Made by a program: the position numbers and the translations under genes. Under the pieces are notes generated by a model, which was given only the letters and a program-made list of their open reading frames with translations, made no database searches and was not told the DNA's origin. From an uncultured Dehalococcoidales bacterium (lineage in GTDB: Bacteria > Chloroflexota > Dehalococcoidia > GIF9 > AB-539-J10), in the NCBI GenBank assembly GCA_964394145.1, contig CAYMVL010000025.1, positions 96,493-160,492 of the forward strand: a stretch of 64,000 bases of DNA, given 5' to 3'. This document shows positions 4,875 through 46,141 of the stretch, in pieces (within the stretch, counting starts at the first letter, position 1; each line of letters starts with the position of its first letter).

Positions 4875-5693
4875 TCACCTCCCTCCGGCGAAAACATATT
4901 TGTCCAAATACTCCGGGAACCTGCCATCTCTAACCATGTCAACATATTCCCGTATATGTTCATAGTCTGCATCATAGAGCCCGTAACAAGAGCCAGGATA
5001 AGCCCCCCCGGGCAAATGCACTATTGCATCAACATAAGGATATGGCAGTGTGATCCTGTAAGGCTCAAGCTTCATCGTGTCAGCGTCAATAATTTCTTCT
5101 ACAGACACTATTACCTTCCTCGCCGCTTTTGCCTTCCAGACATCTTCAAACCTGCCACCCCAGATTTGAACGTTGCCATAGACATCCGCCCGCTGCGCGT
5201 GAATCAAGGCAACGTCCGGTTCGATAGCTCTCACGGACACGATATCCTCACCGGTAAAGGGGTCTTTGCCGAGCTTATAAATTCCCTTATCTATGCCAAT
5301 TTTGAGAAGGTCCGTGCCTAAGATGCCTCTTACAGGCATAGATGGGATTCCCATGGAGGCAGCGCGGAGTCCGTTTATTAATGCACCACAGGTGTCCTCT
5401 ATTACCTCGATTTTCCCATCCTCAGCCGCCTTTCTGAAGTTTAGAGCAAACCCGAATAGCTCCAGCCCAAGCATGGCAAACCGAACGCTGCTGGCTACAC
5501 CTGCCCCGATGAGCAGATCGAAACCTATGGCCGGTTCCCTGTCCACTAGCCTCAGACCTCTCTTCTCCTGTCTGATTATTTCTCTGATCAATTCCATGGG
5601 AACCCTATGAAAGGAAAGCCCCCCGGTCGTTAGCAGATCACCATCTCTAACTAGCCCGATTGCCTCCTCTATGTTAATCAGTTCCCCTTTCAA
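4875..5693 (-). CDS. family I CoA-transferase subunit A
   Basis: Conserved ELINIEEAIGLVRDGDLLTTGG...HRVPMELIREII. The longest ORF runs to 5765 with a TTG start. A TTG at 5693 is preceded by a perfect AGGAGG SD with a 6 nt spacer, so 5693 is the likelier start. Confidence 0.75.
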   Translation of the reverse strand: MKGELINIEEAIGLVRDGDLLTTGGLSFHRVPMELIREIIRQEKRGLRLVDREPAIGFDLLIGAGVASSVRFAMLGLELFGFALNFRKAAEDGKIEVIEDTCGALINGLRAASMGIPSMPVRGILGTDLLKIGIDKGIYKLGKDPFTGEDIVSVRAIEPDVALIHAQRADVYGNVQIWGGRFEDVWKAKAARKVIVSVEEIIDADTMKLEPYRITLPYPYVDAIVHLPGGAYPGSCYGLYDADYEHIREYVDMVRDGRFPEYLDKYVFAGGR

Positions 5694-6011
5694 GCTCTGC
5701 CTCCTTTTGACACGGCTCAGGCCGTAATCCCCGCCATTATATTCCTTAACGCTGGATAGCAGCAAAGATTTTCTGCCCCTGACTGCGCAGCTAACAGCGA
5801 AGAAAGAATCTTATGTAAAGTCTCTTCAAATAGACTCTGACCTCTCCTCTTCCTCCCTCCATTCCTGACCTTATGCACCATGCTAGCGTATGCAGCAGCC
5901 AGCACATACCTCTAGAGAATATCCCGGCAGATACGAATGGTACAGACTGAAAAAGCAAGCGAGGCTAACAGCCTCGGCATACTATACGAGATGACTGACC
6001 GGTTCCGTTTA

Positions 6012-25135: not shown

Positions 25136-25507
25136 TCATCTCTTGCCTCTTAGCGTCAAAATGCTCGCAGCGATGACACTGGCAATCTCCGTCAACTCTT
25201 CTAGAAGCTTCTGACTTAGCTCCTTTTCAGATTTGCCAGAGTCTTGTAACAGCCCCAGCCAGAATTTTGTCTCATTGGCTGATTTTAAGGCGTGGGCAAA
25301 GAAATTAGTGTAGTCCTTATTCGAAACAGCACCTTGAGCCTCAGCCATATTTGCCCCGATGCTGGTAGCACTCCGTAGTAACTGGTCACCAATAATCCTT
25401 GATGTCTGGTCCTTCGGCAGTTGTTCGATAAACCGGATAACATCCAGAGCAAATTGATATACCCGCTGCCTAAACTCGTCTTTAAACTTCAATCTCGCAT
25501 TTTGCAT
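25136..25507 (-). CDS. four-helix-bundle protein (23S rRNA intervening-sequence protein / Avd-like family)
   Basis: QFALDVIRFIEQLPKDQTSRIIGDQLLRSATSIGANMAEAQGA...FAHALKSANETKFWL matches the TIGR02436/PF05635 family pattern. Flanked on both sides by AT-rich low-complexity sequence. Confidence 0.8.
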   Translation of the reverse strand: MQNARLKFKDEFRQRVYQFALDVIRFIEQLPKDQTSRIIGDQLLRSATSIGANMAEAQGAVSNKDYTNFFAHALKSANETKFWLGLLQDSGKSEKELSQKLLEELTEIASVIAASILTLRGKR

Positions 25508-26360: not shown

Positions 26361-27158
26361 TTAGAAGACAAATGCCTTAGCTAGGGTCGCTGCCCCTAGC
26401 AGGCATGTGACTCCCCCGATAAGCAATTTTAGCCTGTCAGAACCTAACCTTTTAACCGTCATAGCTGCAAATGGCGCTGCTATAACTGAGCCTATGGCAG
26501 CAGCAGCGACGAGCGTCCAGTATACATCGCCTTTGAGCAACAGATACGCCAAGAAACTCACAGCGCAAACAATAGTGACTGCAACCGTGGTGCTCCCAAC
26601 AGAGTTCTTTACCTCCCGTCCGCTAATTATCTGCCCGCCTGTCACCAGCGGAATGTACCCTCCTCCACTTATCCCCTTGTTAAAAGAGCTTAAGATTCCT
26701 ATCCCGATAAGCCTTTTCCACGAAAGCGCTCCTGCCCTGCTCCTGCGCATGAGGACCAGTATTCCCACCGCCAGGACCATCACCCCTATGTAAATTTCGA
26801 GAGCAAGCTCCGGGATATTCATAGCACAGACCACACCTGTAAGGCCGCCAATCACCCCACAGATGGCCAGAGTGAATACGACCTTAGCATCTTGGGACCT
26901 GGGCAGATAACCCAGTCCTCGCAACCTCTCTTTTATCAACCTGTCATCCCGTCTGAAATCCAGACTTATGTTCCTCACCCGGTGGTGTGCAACCCCTCCA
27001 ATTAAACCACCCGCAAACTGGCTTAACAATACCGCCGGGATAACCTGCAAAGGGGCGAATCCCATGATAAGAAGCACGGGCGCCAGAGCAGTCCCATAAC
27101 CCAGTCCCACGGAAATGCTCATATACTGGAACAAAAGAGCAAACAAGGCTACAGCCAT
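26361..27158 (-). CDS. TauE/SafE family sulfite/sulfonate exporter-like membrane protein (DUF81)
   Basis: 265 aa with 8 TM helices and two repeated halves. Glycine-rich TM motifs typical of DUF81. Confidence 0.75.
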   Translation of the reverse strand: MAVALFALLFQYMSISVGLGYGTALAPVLLIMGFAPLQVIPAVLLSQFAGGLIGGVAHHRVRNISLDFRRDDRLIKERLRGLGYLPRSQDAKVVFTLAICGVIGGLTGVVCAMNIPELALEIYIGVMVLAVGILVLMRRSRAGALSWKRLIGIGILSSFNKGISGGGYIPLVTGGQIISGREVKNSVGSTTVAVTIVCAVSFLAYLLLKGDVYWTLVAAAAIGSVIAAPFAAMTVKRLGSDRLKLLIGGVTCLLGAATLAKAFVF

Positions 27159-27191
27159 AAAAACAGTGGGTGTTATGTCTATGCCTCTTCC

Positions 27192-27410
27192 CTAGTCCAG
27201 ATAGCCCAGAGCCTTGAGCCTCTTCTTTACCTCCTGCTCGTCTTCCTCGCTGAAGCTCCTGTCGCTCTCTTCTTCCTTGACAACTTCTTGCAGCACAAAT
27301 TCAACGTACTCATCCACCGACCCGAAATCAGTAGCCTTCACTCTTTCCTCCACCTTCCGGTAAAGCTCGGCAGGCAAAAACACAGCCTTATTCTCTGCTT
27401 TTTCTGTCAT
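27192..27410 (-). CDS. ribbon-helix-helix (CopG-like) small protein
   Basis: 72 aa (MTEKAENKAVFLPAELYRKVEERVKATDFGSVDEYVEFVLQEVVKEEESDRSFSEEDEQEVKKRLKALGYLD). AAGGAGGT SD 12 nt upstream. Its ATG overlaps the stop of the upstream paralog as ATGA. Confidence 0.6.
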   Translation of the reverse strand: MTEKAENKAVFLPAELYRKVEERVKATDFGSVDEYVEFVLQEVVKEEESDRSFSEEDEQEVKKRLKALGYLD

Positions 27411-27619
27411 AGATAGCCTAACCTCCTTAATCTTTCTCTGATTGCTCTTACCTCTTCCTCGGTAAGCCTGTCCCCTCCCTTTATCTCGCCGCTGGATGCC
27501 AGATTGCGCATAACAAAGATGATGAATTCCGTCACGCTGGAGAAGCCTGTCCCTTTTATCATCTGCGTCAGGCTCAGATAAAGCTCCCTTGGTATCTTGA
27601 TGGTGACCCTGTCTCCCAT
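27407..27619 (-). CDS. ribbon-helix-helix (CopG-like) small protein, paralog of 27192-27410
   Basis: MGDRVTIKIPRELYLSLTQMIKGTGFSSVTEFIIFVMRNLASSGEIKGGDRLTEEEVRAIRERLRRLGYL. Same beta-strand/helix pattern and C-terminal RLxxLGYL motif. Confidence 0.6.
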   Translation of the reverse strand: MGDRVTIKIPRELYLSLTQMIKGTGFSSVTEFIIFVMRNLASSGEIKGGDRLTEEEVRAIRERLRRLGYL

Positions 27620-27679
27620 AACACCCCAATTAGAGTGCAATTGTACTGCAGCATCCCCCCTCGATGCAAGAGCTGTGGC

Positions 27680-27926
27680 AGGCTGCCCAAGCTGGGCCTA
27701 AGCAATCCCGGGGCAGCCATGAGATTGCCGCGCTTCGCTCGCAATGACATGCCATTTTGTCGTTGCGAGGCTGGCCAGACCAGCCGAAGCAATCTGAGGG
27801 GCCAGCGATGGGATTGCCGCGCTTCGCTCGCAATGACATCCCGCTTTGTCGTTGCGAGGCAGGCAAAGCCAGCCGAAGCAATCCCGGGCCAGTGATGAGA
27901 TTGCCACGCTTCGCTCGCAATGACAT
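27680..27926. repeat. tandem array (~2.8 copies) of an 87-89 bp unit, each containing a 12-bp hairpin
   Basis: Units at 27719-27807, 27808-27894 and 27895-~27926 (truncated), plus a partial unit at 27680-27718. The unit begins atgRgattgccgcgcttcgctcgcaatgacat. The inverted repeat ctcgcaatgaca / tgtcgttgcgag allows one G-U pair. It lies between the rfbD stop and the RHH gene start. Confidence 0.8.
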
Positions 27927-27963
27927 AGGAGACACGAGCCCCGCAATAACACGCGGATTATTC

Positions 27964-28833
27964 TCAGGCTATGTGCCCTCTGGCAACCAGGTAATGCTTG
28001 AGCGCTTCCTGCCAGGGCCTCATGTCATCCAGGCCCAGGAGCCGCAGGTGGTAATTGTCCAGCACGGAGTAGCCGGGCCTTATGGCTTTCTGGGGATACC
28101 GGTCTGAGCTTATCGGAATTACCGGGGTCCTCAAGCCCGCCAGCTTCAGTATCTCTCCGGCGAATTCGTACCAGGAACAGGAGCCCCTGTTGGTGATATG
28201 GAATATGCCATAGTATTCGGTCTGGAGAATCTGGGCTATCTTCCCAGCCAGGTCGCCGGTATAGGTGGGGGAGAATACCTGATCATTGACCACCTTGATT
28301 TCGTCGCGCTCTCCGGCCAGCCTGAGCATGGTTTCGATGAAGTTGCCGCCTTTGCCGCTGGAGCCGGCCAGGCCGAAAAGCCCCGAAGCTCTGATGATGA
28401 AGTGCCTGAGGCAAAGATGGCGGACAAGGTCTTCCCCGGCCAGCTTGGACTTGCCGTAAACGCTGAGGGGGACAGGCGTCTCGAATTCGGTGTAGGGGGT
28501 GCTTCGTGGCTCAGCATTACCGCCGAAGACGTAGTCGGTGCTGAGATGTATCAGCTTAGCGCCGAGTTCCTGCGCGACCACCGCGACATTGCGGGCTCCC
28601 AGAGCGTTCACCTGGAAGGCTTTCTCCTTTTCGTCTTCGCAGTCGTCAACGCGAACACAGGCGGCGGTATTGATGATGACATCAGGATTGCGCTTGAGCA
28701 TGGCTCCCCTGACGGAAGCCATGTCGGCAATTTCGATATCGGTATGGGTAAGGGGAATGACATCGAAGTCATGCAGGGCCCGGCACAGATCAGTGCCCAG
28801 TTGTCCGTTAGCGCCTGTTACTGCTACTTTCAC
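27964..28833 (-). CDS. rfbD: dTDP-4-dehydrorhamnose reductase
   Basis: KVAVTGANGQLG Rossmann motif and RmlD topology. The GTG start at 28833 overlaps the rfbB TGA stop as GTGA. The longest ORF, to 28893, would overlap rfbB by 64 nt. Confidence 0.85.
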   Translation of the reverse strand: MKVAVTGANGQLGTDLCRALHDFDVIPLTHTDIEIADMASVRGAMLKRNPDVIINTAACVRVDDCEDEKEKAFQVNALGARNVAVVAQELGAKLIHLSTDYVFGGNAEPRSTPYTEFETPVPLSVYGKSKLAGEDLVRHLCLRHFIIRASGLFGLAGSSGKGGNFIETMLRLAGERDEIKVVNDQVFSPTYTGDLAGKIAQILQTEYYGIFHITNRGSCSWYEFAGEILKLAGLRTPVIPISSDRYPQKAIRPGYSVLDNYHLRLLGLDDMRPWQEALKHYLVARGHIA

Positions 28834-29834
28834 CTTTTGAGGTACATTTCCTCGTAGTATCTTGAGTATTCGCCGCTCTTGATTGACTGCCACCAGGACC
28901 GGTTGTTCAGATACCAGTCAACAGTAGCACCCAGGGCTCCTTCAAAGGTGTAAGCCGGCTTCCAGCCCAGCTCCGCAGTTATCTTGGTGCAATCGAGGGC
29001 GTAGCGGCGGTCGTGGGCGGGACGGTCGGAGACGAATTGTATCAGGCTCTGCGGTTTTCCCAGTAACTCCAGCAACCTGTGGATAAGCTCCAGGTTGCTC
29101 TTCTCATTGCCGCCGCCGATATTGTATATCTCTCCCGGCCGGCCTTTCTGAAGCACGGCATTGAGAGCCCGGCAGTGGTCGTTTACAAAGATCCAGTCCC
29201 TGACATTGAGGCCATCGCCGTACACGGGGACCGGCTTATCCTCCAGAGCGTTGGTGATAGCCAGCGGGATTAGCTTCTCGGGAAACTGGTATGGTCCTAA
29301 GTTGTTAGTACAGCGGGTGATGATTACCGGGACATGGTGGGTCCTGAAGTAGGCAAGAGATAAGAGGTCGGCAGCAGCCTTGCTGGCTGAATACGGGCTG
29401 CTGGGTGACAGAAGCGATTGCTCATCGAAGCGGCCAATATCAACAGAGCCGTAGACTTCATCAGTGGAGACCTGGACAAATCTCCCGATCCCGTGCTTTT
29501 TTGCCCCTTCAAGGAGCACCTGAGTCCCCTTAACATTGGTCTCAATGAATGGAGAGGCGTCCATGATGCTGCGGTCAACGTGGCTCTCGGCGGCACAATT
29601 CACAACGAAATCAAAGCCCTCACCGAGCAACCTATCTACCAGCTTCCTGTCAGCTATATCACCTTTGATGAAACGGTAGCCGGGCCGGCCTTCCATATCC
29701 TTTAAGTTCTCCATGTTGCCGGCATAGGTGAGCTTGTCCAGATTGCTTATCTCCCAGTCGGCATGTTCTTGCCGGATATGGCGAATGAAATTAGAGCCGA
29801 TGAAGCCGGCGCCCCCGGTGACCAGTAGCTTCAT
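28830..29834 (-). CDS. rfbB: dTDP-glucose 4,6-dehydratase
   Basis: MKLLVTGGAGFIGSNF... and a YSASKAA catalytic motif. The ATG at 29834 is preceded by GGAGGAGG and overlaps the rfbC stop as ATGA. Confidence 0.9.
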   Translation of the reverse strand: MKLLVTGGAGFIGSNFIRHIRQEHADWEISNLDKLTYAGNMENLKDMEGRPGYRFIKGDIADRKLVDRLLGEGFDFVVNCAAESHVDRSIMDASPFIETNVKGTQVLLEGAKKHGIGRFVQVSTDEVYGSVDIGRFDEQSLLSPSSPYSASKAAADLLSLAYFRTHHVPVIITRCTNNLGPYQFPEKLIPLAITNALEDKPVPVYGDGLNVRDWIFVNDHCRALNAVLQKGRPGEIYNIGGGNEKSNLELIHRLLELLGKPQSLIQFVSDRPAHDRRYALDCTKITAELGWKPAYTFEGALGATVDWYLNNRSWWQSIKSGEYSRYYEEMYLKR

Positions 29835-30400: not shown

Positions 30401-30420
30401 GTAAAACCTCTCCCTTGCTG

Positions 30421-30530
30421 GTTCAATAGTTCAATGGTTTCATGGTTCAATAGTTCAATAGTTCAATGGTTCAATGGTTTCATGGTTCAATCGTTGTTGG
30501 TTTTTTGGTTGCTGGTTTGCTGGTTCTTAA
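30421..30530. repeat. 8-nt periodic simple repeat (GTTCAATR) x9, decaying into GTTGYTG-like units
   Basis: gttcaatagttcaatggtttcatggttcaatagttcaatagttcaatggttcaatggtttcatggttcaatcgttgttgg... fills the rfbC to four-helix-bundle-gene spacer. The degenerate part encodes the C-terminal KPATKKPTTIEP tail of the four-helix-bundle protein. Confidence 0.8.
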
Positions 30531-30878
30531 GTAGCGAATGAAACCCTGTAACATCCTGGCAACTTTGCTGCATTGCTCCGTTAATGAGTCGAATTGATTA
30601 CCACTAATGTAATGCAAATCCAAAGCGGCGTAAAGTTGGGATTGAGCCTCTGCTGTAGAACGTAGAGAATAGCCCAGGAAAGTTGTAAATTCTCTGTTCG
30701 ATTGACACATAAAACCTTCGGCAATATTGGACATAACAGATATAACAGCCCGCTGAATTTGATCTCTCAACTCTCGGTCATTTTTGAATGGTGCTTTATT
30801 AGTGGCTTCATAAACCATCTTAACCAGTAACCTTGCCTCTCTCCATGCCTCTATATCCTCAAATCGCTCAATCTTCAT
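30480..30878 (-). CDS. four-helix-bundle protein (23S rRNA IVS protein / Avd-like family), second copy
   Basis: MKIERFEDIEAWREARLLVKMVYEATNKAPFKNDRELRDQIQRAVISVMSNIAEGF...STAEAQSQLYAALDLHYI, the canonical TIGR02436 pattern. Inserted between rfbA and rfbC. Confidence 0.8.
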   Translation of the reverse strand: MKIERFEDIEAWREARLLVKMVYEATNKAPFKNDRELRDQIQRAVISVMSNIAEGFMCQSNREFTTFLGYSLRSTAEAQSQLYAALDLHYISGNQFDSLTEQCSKVARMLQGFIRYLRTSKPATKKPTTIEP

Positions 30879-30887
30879 TAACTCTCA

Positions 30888-30935
30888 AACTATCTAACCA
30901 TCAACTATCTAACCATGTAACTATCTAACCACCCA
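30888..30935. repeat. about 3 tandem copies of a 15-16 nt unit ACTATCTAACCAYSW
   Basis: aactatctaaccatca / actatctaaccatgta / actatctaaccaccca fills the entire rfbA-stop to four-helix-bundle-start spacer. Confidence 0.7.
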
Positions 30936-45254: not shown

Positions 45255-46076
45255 TTGCTAAAGATTGGCTGGTTTTCCACAGGCAGGGATAAAGCGGCAC
45301 GCCAGCTTCTGCACGCCGTGCAGAATGAGATCGGCACCGGTGGAATCAGCGGCAAGATTGACTTCGTTTTCAGCAACCGGGAGCCCGGTGAATTCAGGGA
45401 AAGCGATTCGTTTTTTGAATTAGTCCGTAGCTATGACATCCCGCTTGTCTGCTTATCTCACAGAAAGTTCAAGAGGCCTGGGATAGTACTGCCTTCCGAA
45501 CGCGAAAGCGCAGAGCAGGGCGATGCAAAGCAGGCCCGGGAGAGTTGGCGGCTCAGCTATGACAGGGAGATACAAAGCAGAATTGCTAAATTCGCCCCAG
45601 ACATCTGTGTCCTTGCCGGTTATATGCTCATCATAGGGGAAGAGCTGTGCCAGAGTTACAATATGATTAATCTTCATCCAGCACCTCCAGGTGGTCCTAC
45701 AGGCAGCTGGCAAGCAGTCATTAGAAAACTGCTACAGGACAAAGCTGAAAAGGCCGGAGCAATGATGCACTTAGTCACTCCTGAATTAGACAGAGGGCCG
45801 GTAATTAGTTATTGCACCTTCTCTATCAGAGGCAAGCCCTTCGATCAATATTGGCGAAACGATGATAAAGATACGTTGTTCCGACTTATTCGCCAGTATG
45901 AGCTTAGCAGGGAGTTCCCTCTCATCATCTCCACGCTTAAAGCACTTGGTCGTGGAGAGATTAATGTGACAGGAAGAGGGTTAATCGATGCGCGGGGAAA
46001 CTCAATTGGCGGATACGATCTCAGTAGTGAAATAAACAGTATGATAGACAGCCAAGTCGCTTCACCAAGCTCGTAA
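45255..46076 (+). CDS. formyltransferase family protein (PurN-like)
   Basis: PDICVLAGYMLII, NLHPAPPGG and HLVTPELDRGPVI correspond to the PurN motifs. Confidence 0.6.
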   Translation: MLKIGWFSTGRDKAARQLLHAVQNEIGTGGISGKIDFVFSNREPGEFRESDSFFELVRSYDIPLVCLSHRKFKRPGIVLPSERESAEQGDAKQARESWRLSYDREIQSRIAKFAPDICVLAGYMLIIGEELCQSYNMINLHPAPPGGPTGSWQAVIRKLLQDKAEKAGAMMHLVTPELDRGPVISYCTFSIRGKPFDQYWRNDDKDTLFRLIRQYELSREFPLIISTLKALGRGEINVTGRGLIDARGNSIGGYDLSSEINSMIDSQVASPSS

Positions 46077-46141
46077 TGACAAATAGCGTCATCATTACCC
46101 AGTACGGAATTTTGGAGCAGTCCTAGAGACAGAATAAGAAC

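Follow-up and report, generated by a model that had tools for sequence, protein, structure and literature searches.

The 64-kb stretch of DNA analysed here, hereafter the window (64,000 nucleotides of contig CAYMVL010000025.1, GenBank assembly GCA_964394145.1, from an uncultured Dehalococcoidales bacterium), contains an 88-89-bp tandem array of hairpin repeats at 27670-27925, placed between the stop codon of rfbD and the promoter of a ribbon-helix-helix (RHH)-TauE-cysDN operon. All flanking genes lie on the minus strand; rfbD (27964-28893) is followed by the array, an RHH gene (27407-27619; Pfam RHH_1), a small open reading frame (ORF; 27192-27416) without a significant Pfam match, TauE and cysD. 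Tandem repeats of ~88 bp with inverted repeats had been proposed at this position from the sequence alone (hereafter the original prediction), and they proved real by Tandem Repeats Finder, by counts of a 19-mer and by an inverted-repeat search. Tandem Repeats Finder reported 27696-27926 with a period of 89, 2.6 copies, 84% matches and a score of 332. The 19-mer CGCTTCGCTCGCAATGACA occurs at three sites (27731, 27820 and 27907) against 0.00 expected from shuffles, with no further site in the window when up to 3 mismatches were allowed. The inverted repeat CTCGCAATGACA / TGTCGTTGCGAG occurs twice, its arms 92% complementary; the predicted hairpin therefore held up in its 12-nt arms and two occurrences, and its gap is 8 nt rather than 8-9 nt. 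The conserved tail CCGAAGCAATC was likewise found in the array.

A covariance model (R1) recovered five intact copies in the 64 kb, every one within the array (38-41 bits); as its seed held four of the five array sequences, the informative part of this result is the absence of matches elsewhere in the window, where the next best match had E=2.9. Mismatch searches and the covariance model run without filters also found no copy in the window outside the array. A look-alike at 46040-46081 (minus strand; TGTCATTACGAG...) is weak, lacks the tail and was dropped as a further copy; this sequence (TGTCATTACGAGCTTGGTGAAGCGAC...), found where an ORF has its 3' end, is similar to the repeat's head half and may be a remnant or a chance likeness. 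The repeat-derived ORFs at 27630-27935 (-), 27698-27952 (-) and 27635-27895 (+), have no Pfam match, and the original view of them as artefacts holds. Two further exclusions made at the outset were upheld: a clustered regularly interspaced short palindromic repeat (CRISPR) array, since the repeats alternate in orientation and the short 'spacers' (8 and 15-17 nt) are homologous between units, and a canonical intrinsic terminator, since no terminator-like site was found in 27000-28600.

The same locus is present in two independent Joint Genome Institute (JGI) assemblies (L121 and L122) with the same flanks and one extra 89-nt unit bearing its own substitutions (436 versus 347 nt between shared anchors), giving four units against three in the window; three short-read contigs end within the array. 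Because two independent assemblies carry the locus with one unit more, the array is real and is not the assembly artefact that had been named as a possible refutation, and its unit number in the window is either a true variant or a collapsed repeat.

Unit structure and folding

The natural unit of the array is a pair of inverted TGTC-headed repetitive extragenic palindromic (REP) sequences, in 27-nt and 37-nt forms with their heads outward, present three times (Table 1). The 88-bp repeat with a 12-bp hairpin as first drawn was misregistered, that hairpin being the head-to-head junction of two neighbouring pairs. On the gene-sense strand each unit comprises a short repeat, a 15-17-nt spacer, an inverted long repeat and an 8-nt linker. 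The short repeat (27 nt) reads TGTC-ATTGC-GAGCGAAGCGCG-GCAAT-C and the long repeat (37 nt) appears as the complement of TGTC-GTTGC-GAG-GCTGGCCAGACCAGC-CGAA-GCAAT-C; TGTC...GCAATC is found in all five window copies, and the final long repeat, nearest the RHH gene, is decayed. The general layout is an unpaired YGTC head, a 5-bp stem (ATTGC/GCAAT), a GA/GAA internal loop enclosing a nested G+C hairpin of free sequence (shortest form GCGAAGC), and a C after the stem. Set against the published CGTC design, the stem thus has a 5-bp outer part, the GA/GAA internal loop and a variable inner helix closed by a loop of 3-7 nt. Linkers and spacers are homologous from unit to unit (spacers at 27884-27898 and 27708-27722 corresponding to that at 27795-27811), which shows that the array grew by tandem duplication of one pair with its linker, not by separate insertions.

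Each pair can fold as a single long branched hairpin, and each repeat can also fold alone. DNA folds of the pairs reach -18 to -22 kcal/mol (z -2.4 to -3.1) and that of the 72-nt head-to-head segment 27723-27794 reaches -21.4 kcal/mol (z=-4.6), while RNA folds of the pairs reach -31 to -33 kcal/mol (z -1.8 and -2.1) and the head-to-head segment has z=-3.2. Selection on structure had originally been argued from the local copies; the conclusion stands, with the evidence coming not from these 2.6 copies but from 48 distinct copies in other genomes. Among the latter, G2, T3 and C4 of the head are invariant, as are GCGAG on the 5' side and the G and T of GCAAT, and most other positions of the outer stem, the GAA and the following C are conserved in at least 90%. 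Pairing was observed in 86% of cells against 77% in shuffles, and double-sided changes numbered 37 against 11.3 expected, values reached by 0 of 500 shuffles in both cases; slid controls paired in 20-51%. The outer stem belonged to the selection rule, so the independent evidence is the inner helix only, which covaries across genomes in four of its five pairs, its sequence being free and its pairing kept. In one large subgroup a tandem G.A/A.G replaces two inner pairs beside a GC-GNA-GC core. The excess of G.T over A.C pairs (11:2, a count partly biased by a selection that permitted G.T in the outer stem) points to the YGTC strand as the folding strand. Stem position 1 is A-T in 45 of the 48 copies and G.T in the long copies of the window, and position 2 is T-A in 47. 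No Rfam family matched the window region at gathering score or at E<=10, and at gathering score 18 loci with canonical copies returned tRNAs only, with no match over the copies.

Distribution across bacterial phyla and viruses

Searched for in other genomes, the conserved 19-mer proved widely dispersed, in agreement with the first of three options in the original prediction, a dispersed REP-like family. A scan for the exact 19-mer with one genome per species listed matches in at least 120 genome stretches from about 16 phyla, as judged by record titles. Among the listed matches are Desulfobacterota, Alpha-, Beta- and Gammaproteobacteria, Chloroflexota, Cyanobacteria, Bacteroidota, Candidate Phyla Radiation (CPR), Planctomycetota, Firmicutes, Spirochaetes, Nitrospirota, Acidobacteria, Fibrobacterota, Calditrichota, KSB1, Campylobacterota and Actinomycetota, including finished genomes such as Calothrix AP018227 and Dehalococcoidia chromosomes. 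The 19-mer was also found in 93 IMG/VR viral contigs and on plasmids of Nostocales, Methylosinus, Halomonas and Novosphingobium, with nothing annotated over it. Literature searches with the literal sequence and peptides returned primer noise or nothing.

The usual element elsewhere is an inverted pair with heads outward and ends YGTC...GACR (median 83 nt), of which there are 81 among the 120 listed loci. No target-site duplication was detected, 78 of these 81 pairs being without flanking direct repeats in a distribution equal to that of the shuffled control. A miniature transposable element with inverted repeats (MITE) of the DDE cut-and-paste kind was rejected, as terminal inverted repeats are present but a target-site duplication is not. 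By crude ORF calls the genes on either side are co-directional at 34 sites, convergent at 17 and divergent at 6, and orientation of the repeat relative to transcription was 17:17 across the 34 co-directional contexts. Heads among 142 copies were TGTC (117), CGTC (20) and GGTC (5), and the tails CTC (50 copies), CCC (26) and CCA (26). All-against-all ORF clustering of the 120 listed genome loci, performed again with the viral loci, revealed no transposase recurring beside the repeat; large clusters were generic families or structural genes of one phage group, the largest in the genome loci spanning 9 of them.

One phage group appears to account for ~28 of the 93 viral contigs (e.g. L133, L159, L160, L171 and L191 in the set L128-L220), as judged by shared ORF sequences resembling capsid, portal and tail-fibre proteins. 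On these contigs more than one copy of the repeat lies between genes and even within ORFs, and phages could be vehicles for the repeat. A different cluster form was noted in an Anaerolineae metagenome-assembled genome (L036, 1834-2050), where 7 short repeats in direct orientation, with a 34-37-nt period and ~8-nt gaps, could pass for a CRISPR-like array. Other YGTC-headed types, e.g. GTCATTCTGAGCGGCGAAGCCGCGAAGAATC and CGTCACTCCCGCTTTCGCGGGAATCC, share loci with the ATTGC type in L013, L014, L033, L037 and L229, indicating several subtypes within one genome.

For the exact long-repeat variant of the window, one metagenome scan gave no evidence of dispersal, returning only two other contigs (L126 and L127). 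In the latter (Ga0315277_10025691, positions 5450-5700), from another organism, the same short plus long pair directly follows a ~40-codon 3' fragment of rfbD (...RPWQEALKDYTLAKGHVA*) and both are surrounded by unrelated genes, so that the repeat cluster and the rfbD end appear to have been moved or kept together.

Association with a GIY-YIG nuclease

A search for ORFs flanked on both sides by repeats identified, in a Woesebacteria genome (L039), a 97-aa GIY-YIG ORF exactly between inverted repeats, with a forward repeat 15 nt before the start codon and further repeats from 1 nt past the stop codon. Single-domain GIY-YIG proteins have been named Ssn and their flanking hairpins Ssn-related motifs (SRM; Chenal et al. 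2025, Nat Commun 16:2388; PMC11893778), and a link between GIY-YIG proteins and hairpin repeats is therefore already published. Homologues of the L039-type nuclease with 62-75% identity occur in CPR, Cyanobacteria, Delta- and Gammaproteobacteria, Cloacimonetes, Verrucomicrobia and Elusimicrobia. Loci of six homologues, chosen solely on protein identity, and two viral loci were fetched; the repeat or a close variant adjoins the nuclease gene in all but one. A GIY-YIG ORF again lies between two inverted repeats in L237 and L238/239, and the gene is repeat-flanked in L230, L231, L233, L234 and L235. In Elusimicrobia and in GCA_900206355 it takes up the stretch that separates the tails of a pair, and one nuclease protein, as called, begins within the repeat ('CHCEEERRSNL'). 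A repeat-ssn-repeat arrangement with a cd10448-type GIY-YIG gene was thus found for this subtype in L039, L230, L231, L233-L235, L237 and L239, and not at the window locus. Model R1 gave 31 matches at E<=0.01 in seven loci that had been fetched solely for encoding this nuclease clade, and none in the other 18 loci, which represent other Ssn clades together with 5 loci from the window's organism or RHH-operon relatives.

Between the nuclease beside this repeat type and the Neisseria gonorrhoeae homologue located among Neisseria Transformation Sequence (NTS) repeats, identity is 43% (E=3e-27). In Rhizobium, Shinella, Azospirillum, Novosphingobium, Sphingobium and Aeromonas, more distant Ssn homologues on proteobacterial replicons lie between classical CGTC repeats of their own, likewise ordered repeat (+), gene, repeat (-), and repeat arrays adjoin the ssn gene in Neisseria and Photobacterium. 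Sister forms with compensating stems were found in Planktothrix and Spirosoma (GTCATTCTGAG...GAAGAATC and GTCATCCCGAG...GAGGGATC). In viral contigs, ssn was found at 2 loci only. As small inserts with flanking repeats, ssn genes were also noted within the suf operon of Azospirillum (L246; sufB, ssn, sufC), in Sinorhizobium meliloti (L243; gltA, ssn, lpxB) and on a Planktothrix plasmid (L240; MmeI, ssn, DrmA); such inserts between housekeeping or defence genes are consistent with a mobile cassette.

The biochemistry of binding and cutting has been published for Neisseria and Wolbachia pairs only (PMC11893778). Neisseria meningitidis SsnA binds the NTS, which contains dRS3, solely as single-stranded DNA (ssDNA) and on the CGTC strand only, and cuts a few nt upstream; RNA and double-stranded DNA are not substrates (PMC11893778). 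Cutting requires the three bases before the palindrome (GTC), binding requires the C that follows it, and SsnA reduces transformation by NTS-flanked DNA (PMC11893778). The insertion sequence-like NTS-ssnA-NTS layout and a parallel with REP sequences and their associated tyrosine transposases (RAYTs) were noted in that study, which left the role in other bacteria open (PMC11893778).

Genomic neighbourhood

Relatives (L221-L227) keep the operon RHH, RHH, TauE, CysD, CysN, phosphodiesterase, with RHH proteins 80-90% identical to those of the window, some of them, at 83-84% identity, carrying Chloroflexota or Dehalococcoidales names. They share the promoter-like TTGCAT-17/18 nt-TAYAMT and the palindrome ACTCYAATTGGRGT (L221 3950-4000, L224 3945-4000, L227 3965-4000) and have a different upstream neighbour; no repeats were found ahead of this operon in L221-L227. 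The absence of the array from relatives that share the operon shows it to be a lineage-specific insertion, situated where the rfb genes end and ahead of the promoter that belongs to the next operon. The palindrome ACTCYAATTGGRGT overlaps the ribosome-binding site of the first RHH gene and is likely an autoregulatory operator. Two PF05635 genes (23S rRNA intervening-sequence protein, four-helix bundle) were noted as insertions within operons on either side of the array, one between cysD and cysN (25136-25507 (-); Pfam E=3.6e-23) and one between rfbA and rfbC (~30540-30875 (-); assigned from the gene calls of a sister assembly). The second is flanked (at 30419-30525 and 30879-30931) by short tandem arrays, 3x GGTTAGATAGTT upstream and ~10x GAACYATT downstream, that are roughly inverted copies of one another, so that it looks like an intervening-sequence (IVS)-type cassette whose flanks could pair.

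Table 1. Features of the intergenic region between rfbD and the RHH-TauE-cysDN operon (window coordinates).
Feature	Position	Strand	Basis
rfbD stop codon, upstream limit of the intergenic region	27964..27966	-	ORF list
Whole array, three tandem inverted-REP pairs; pair next to the RHH gene with a decayed partner	27670..27925	.	Sequence, Tandem Repeats Finder, R1
Short REP TGTCATTGCGAGCGAAGCGTGGCAATC; minus-strand read TGTC, ATTGC, GA, GCGAAGC-like core, GCAAT, C	27897..27925	-	R1 38.7 bits, E=1.8e-6
Long REP TGTCGTTGCGAG-GCAGGCAAAGCCAGC-CGAAGCAATC; one A.A mismatch in the inner hairpin	27847..27885	+	R1 40.7 bits; fold
8-nt linker between two REP heads (loop of the originally predicted hairpin); predicted Ssn cut zone, either strand	27839..27846	.	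Cut by analogy with SsnA (PMC11893778)
Short REP TGTCATTGCGAGCGAAGCGCGGCAATC	27810..27838	-	R1 38.1 bits
17-nt spacer between the tails within one REP pair; elsewhere can hold the ssn gene	27795..27811	.	Sequence, other genomes
Long REP TGTCGTTGCGAG-GCTGGCCAGACCAGC-CGAAGCAATC	27758..27796	+	R1 40.1 bits; lone DNA fold -9.4 kcal/mol, z=-3.0
Second 8-nt head-to-head linker	27750..27757	.	Inverted-repeat search
Short REP TGTCATTGCGAGCGAAGCGCGGCAATC	27721..27749	-	R1 38.7 bits
Decayed long REP GAGCTGTGGCAGGCTGCCCAAGCTGGGCCTAAGCAATC, abutting the -35 box of the next operon	27670..27707	+	Similarity by eye; R1 did not detect
Promoter-like TTGCAT-18 nt-TACAAT of the RHH-TauE-cysDN operon, outside the repeat	27640..27669	-	By-eye alignment with L221, L224, L227
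Palindrome CACTCTAATTGGGGTG immediately ahead of the RHH start codon; relatives have the consensus ACTCYAATTGGRGT	27622..27637	-	Comparison with relatives

Function and origin of the array

The array is probably a local tandem cluster of a dispersed, non-coding REP-type hairpin repeat that provides recognition sites for an Ssn-type nuclease, and by analogy with SsnA its most likely molecular role would be that of ssDNA sites for such an enzyme. Where the DNA becomes single-stranded, during replication or as incoming DNA, a cognate Ssn would bind each hairpin on the YGTC strand and would nick a few nt 5' of the head, which would fall within the 8-nt linkers. The repeats would spread or persist as non-autonomous partners of a repeat-ssn-repeat unit, and nicking or slippage could change the number of units. 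A transcript reading through from rfb would carry hairpins of -31 to -33 kcal/mol per pair, possibly serving as a 3' barrier for rfb mRNA. The anatomy, the dispersal, the covariation, the bracketing of ssn genes elsewhere and the lineage-specific insertion are shown by the data; that an Ssn acts on this array, or that the array influences expression, is inferred.

Several observations weigh against this interpretation. No ssn gene was found by tblastn in the window together with L252, L254 and L121 (~78 kb in all), and no further repeat copy was found in the window or in ~14 kb past its ends; a cognate nuclease in this genome is for that reason hypothetical, and the family may be present here as a relic. 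The published SRM pattern HGTCWYN(0-2)YYVSBRHN(0-5)WNVSBRGN(0-2)RNCYNB matches 0 of the 48 copies of this subtype and has 0 sites on either strand of the window, the Neisseria NTS control being matched; in the regular-expression form used, it also missed one CGTC-3 example, so that the lack of a match reflects a narrow pattern and not unrelatedness. The stem of the present repeat is interrupted (5 bp, internal loop, inner helix), unlike the uninterrupted 8-9-bp stems of known CGTC-tagged REPs, e.g. GTCATCCTCGGGCTTGACCCGAGGAT and GTCATTCCCGCGCAGGCGGGAAT. Binding or cleavage of this subtype by Ssn is predicted, and the evidence for an RNA-level effect consists of folding energies with modest z-scores (-1.8 to -3.2).

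An RNA-level role could instead be the reason why the array is kept, its stem-loops standing at the 3' end of the rfb transcript as in Escherichia coli clusters of REPs and bacterial interspersed mosaic elements (BIMEs), where they would block 3'-5' exonucleases or partly stop read-through into RHH-TauE-cysDN. This explanation, which we consider unlikely as the main one, can coexist with recognition by Ssn. It would account for the position of the array on the transcribed strand, past the stop codon of rfbD and ahead of the next promoter, in a gap where no canonical terminator was found, for the stable RNA folds of each pair, and for the avoidance elsewhere of divergent, promoter-bearing gaps, and REPs have been reported chiefly downstream of genes (PMC3733652). 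The even split of orientations in other genomes, the missing array in relatives with the same operon and the modest RNA z-scores count against it, and the near-invariant YGTC, ATTGC, GAG/GAA and C point to base-specific recognition by a protein rather than to a mere stem; SsnA, moreover, does not bind RNA (PMC11893778). The processing or attenuation site within an operon that the original prediction had offered is not needed, since the downstream operon has its own conserved promoter and relatives manage without the repeats. Its structured small RNA, or more broadly an RNA acting in cis on the downstream operon (a riboswitch or an attenuator, for instance), would fit the inner-helix covariation and the intergenic position, but is highly improbable given the absence of Rfam matches even at E<=10, the occurrence of the element in both orientations beside unrelated genes in about 16 phyla, and the retention of promoter and leader by relatives without repeats.

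A classical doublet of REPs (REPIN) moved by a RAYT (an enzyme of the IS200/IS605-like Y1 tyrosine transposases) would share the inverted doublets of ~80 nt, the lack of target-site duplication and the BIME-like clusters; it is largely refuted by the YGTC head in place of GTAG, by the absence of the sequence from the catalogue of RAYT-associated REPs, and by the identity of the bracketed gene, a GIY-YIG nuclease, no Y1 transposase having been recognised among recurrent gene families near 213 repeat loci, where the larger clusters of the combined set are the genes of one phage group. That the repeats are operators for the adjacent RHH proteins hardly deserves credence. Two RHH genes do follow immediately downstream of them, and repeated sites are bound by RHH proteins, but the close RHH homologues in L221-L227 manage without repeats and share a different palindrome at the start codon, which is more likely than the repeats to be the RHH operator, and no gene family recurs widely beside the repeat. 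A spurious assembly, which contig breaks within the array and the varying unit number might suggest, is just as implausible in the face of two further independent assemblies that span the array with the same flanks and unit-specific substitutions, and of the presence of the family in finished genomes.

We tentatively raise the possibility that the ATTGC-GAG/GAA repeat and its sister forms ATTCT and ATCCC constitute a large undescribed branch of the Ssn/SRM systems, in which repeat-ssn-repeat would be an active, horizontally spreading mobile element, because the repeat is near-identical in about 16 phyla, including CPR and phage contigs, and the nuclease clade is 62-75% identical across phyla. 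The 83-nt pairs would then be non-autonomous derivatives, and the GIY-YIG enzyme would mobilise them rather than act only as a host 'ssDNA restriction' factor. The remarkable point is this cross-phylum near-identity of repeat and nuclease, which is a property of the family and not of the locus, and it raises the question of why a 27-37-nt sequence and a 96-aa nuclease stay so constant across phyla. At the level of the locus the array matters little: it is a repeat cluster of selfish or commensal kind, inserted behind rfbD, that is a hotspot of unit-number change and is likely to cause breaks in contigs as well as spurious ORFs. The repeat type explains a very common class of spurious 'hypothetical proteins' in metagenome-assembled genomes (CHCERS.AI and ...LAMT peptides), extends the pairing of Ssn nucleases with hairpins to a repeat form missed by the published consensus, and offers a concrete candidate enzyme/site pair in L039- or L239-type Ssn with TGTCATTGCGAG...GAAGCAATC.

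Relationship to known repeat systems

By its features, the family belongs with the CGTC-tagged REPs and the SRM, as a subtype outside the consensus of both papers. E. coli REP/BIME and Pseudomonas REPIN-RAYT systems resemble it in several respects: their palindromes are short and imperfect, carry a tetranucleotide conserved at the 5' side, form inverted doublets as well as tandem clusters, have no target-site duplication, lie after genes and flank a single-copy gene for an enzyme acting on ssDNA hairpins. They differ in having a GTAG head and an HUH Y1 transposase where the present family has YGTC and a GIY-YIG nuclease, and in that their repeats are species-specific, whereas this sequence is near-identical across phyla and is absent from the RAYT-associated REP catalogue. 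The short-repeat core GCGAAGC and many long-form GC-GNA-GC cores fit GCGNAGC, a very stable DNA hairpin known as 'mini-hairpin DNA' (review PMC13037366); this is a physical motif rather than a genetic element, and the cores here would be expected to form such hairpins in DNA.

The CGTC-tagged REP super-family was described from five phyla and said to lack a transposase; in its four families the stems run uninterrupted over 8-9 bp and the loops have 4-5 nt (Di Nocera, De Gregorio, Rocco 2013, BMC Genomics 14:522; PMC3733652). Accepted variants of its head are TGTC and CCTC, stem positions 1-2 are A-T, the 3-nt tail is near CCA, and most copies form inverted dimers, named 'HH' (PMC3733652). The present family shares with it the unpaired CGTC/TGTC head, the preference for co-directional and convergent gaps, the spread over several phyla and the lack of a tyrosine transposase. 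It also appears to resemble it in the first stem positions, which are A-T in most copies, in a short C-led tail and in a dimeric organisation; Rhizobium CGTC-3 repeats show the same heads-outward pair arrangement. This repeat sequence itself is absent from the text and supplements of that study (PMC3733652), and probably this form was not counted in the SRM study either (PMC11893778). Relative to the SRM/NTS, the stem is split by the GA/GAA internal loop with its nested variable hairpin, the partner clade is ~43% identical to the Neisseria enzyme, and no ssn was seen near the array. The likeness to the SRM/NTS extends to a directional hairpin with GTC directly 5' of the palindrome and C directly 3' of it, a stem that opens with A-T, a size in the 20-50 nt range, and an intergenic, clustered occurrence in many phyla, with copies in other genomes that bracket a ~95-aa single-domain GIY-YIG gene as repeat, gene, inverted repeat.

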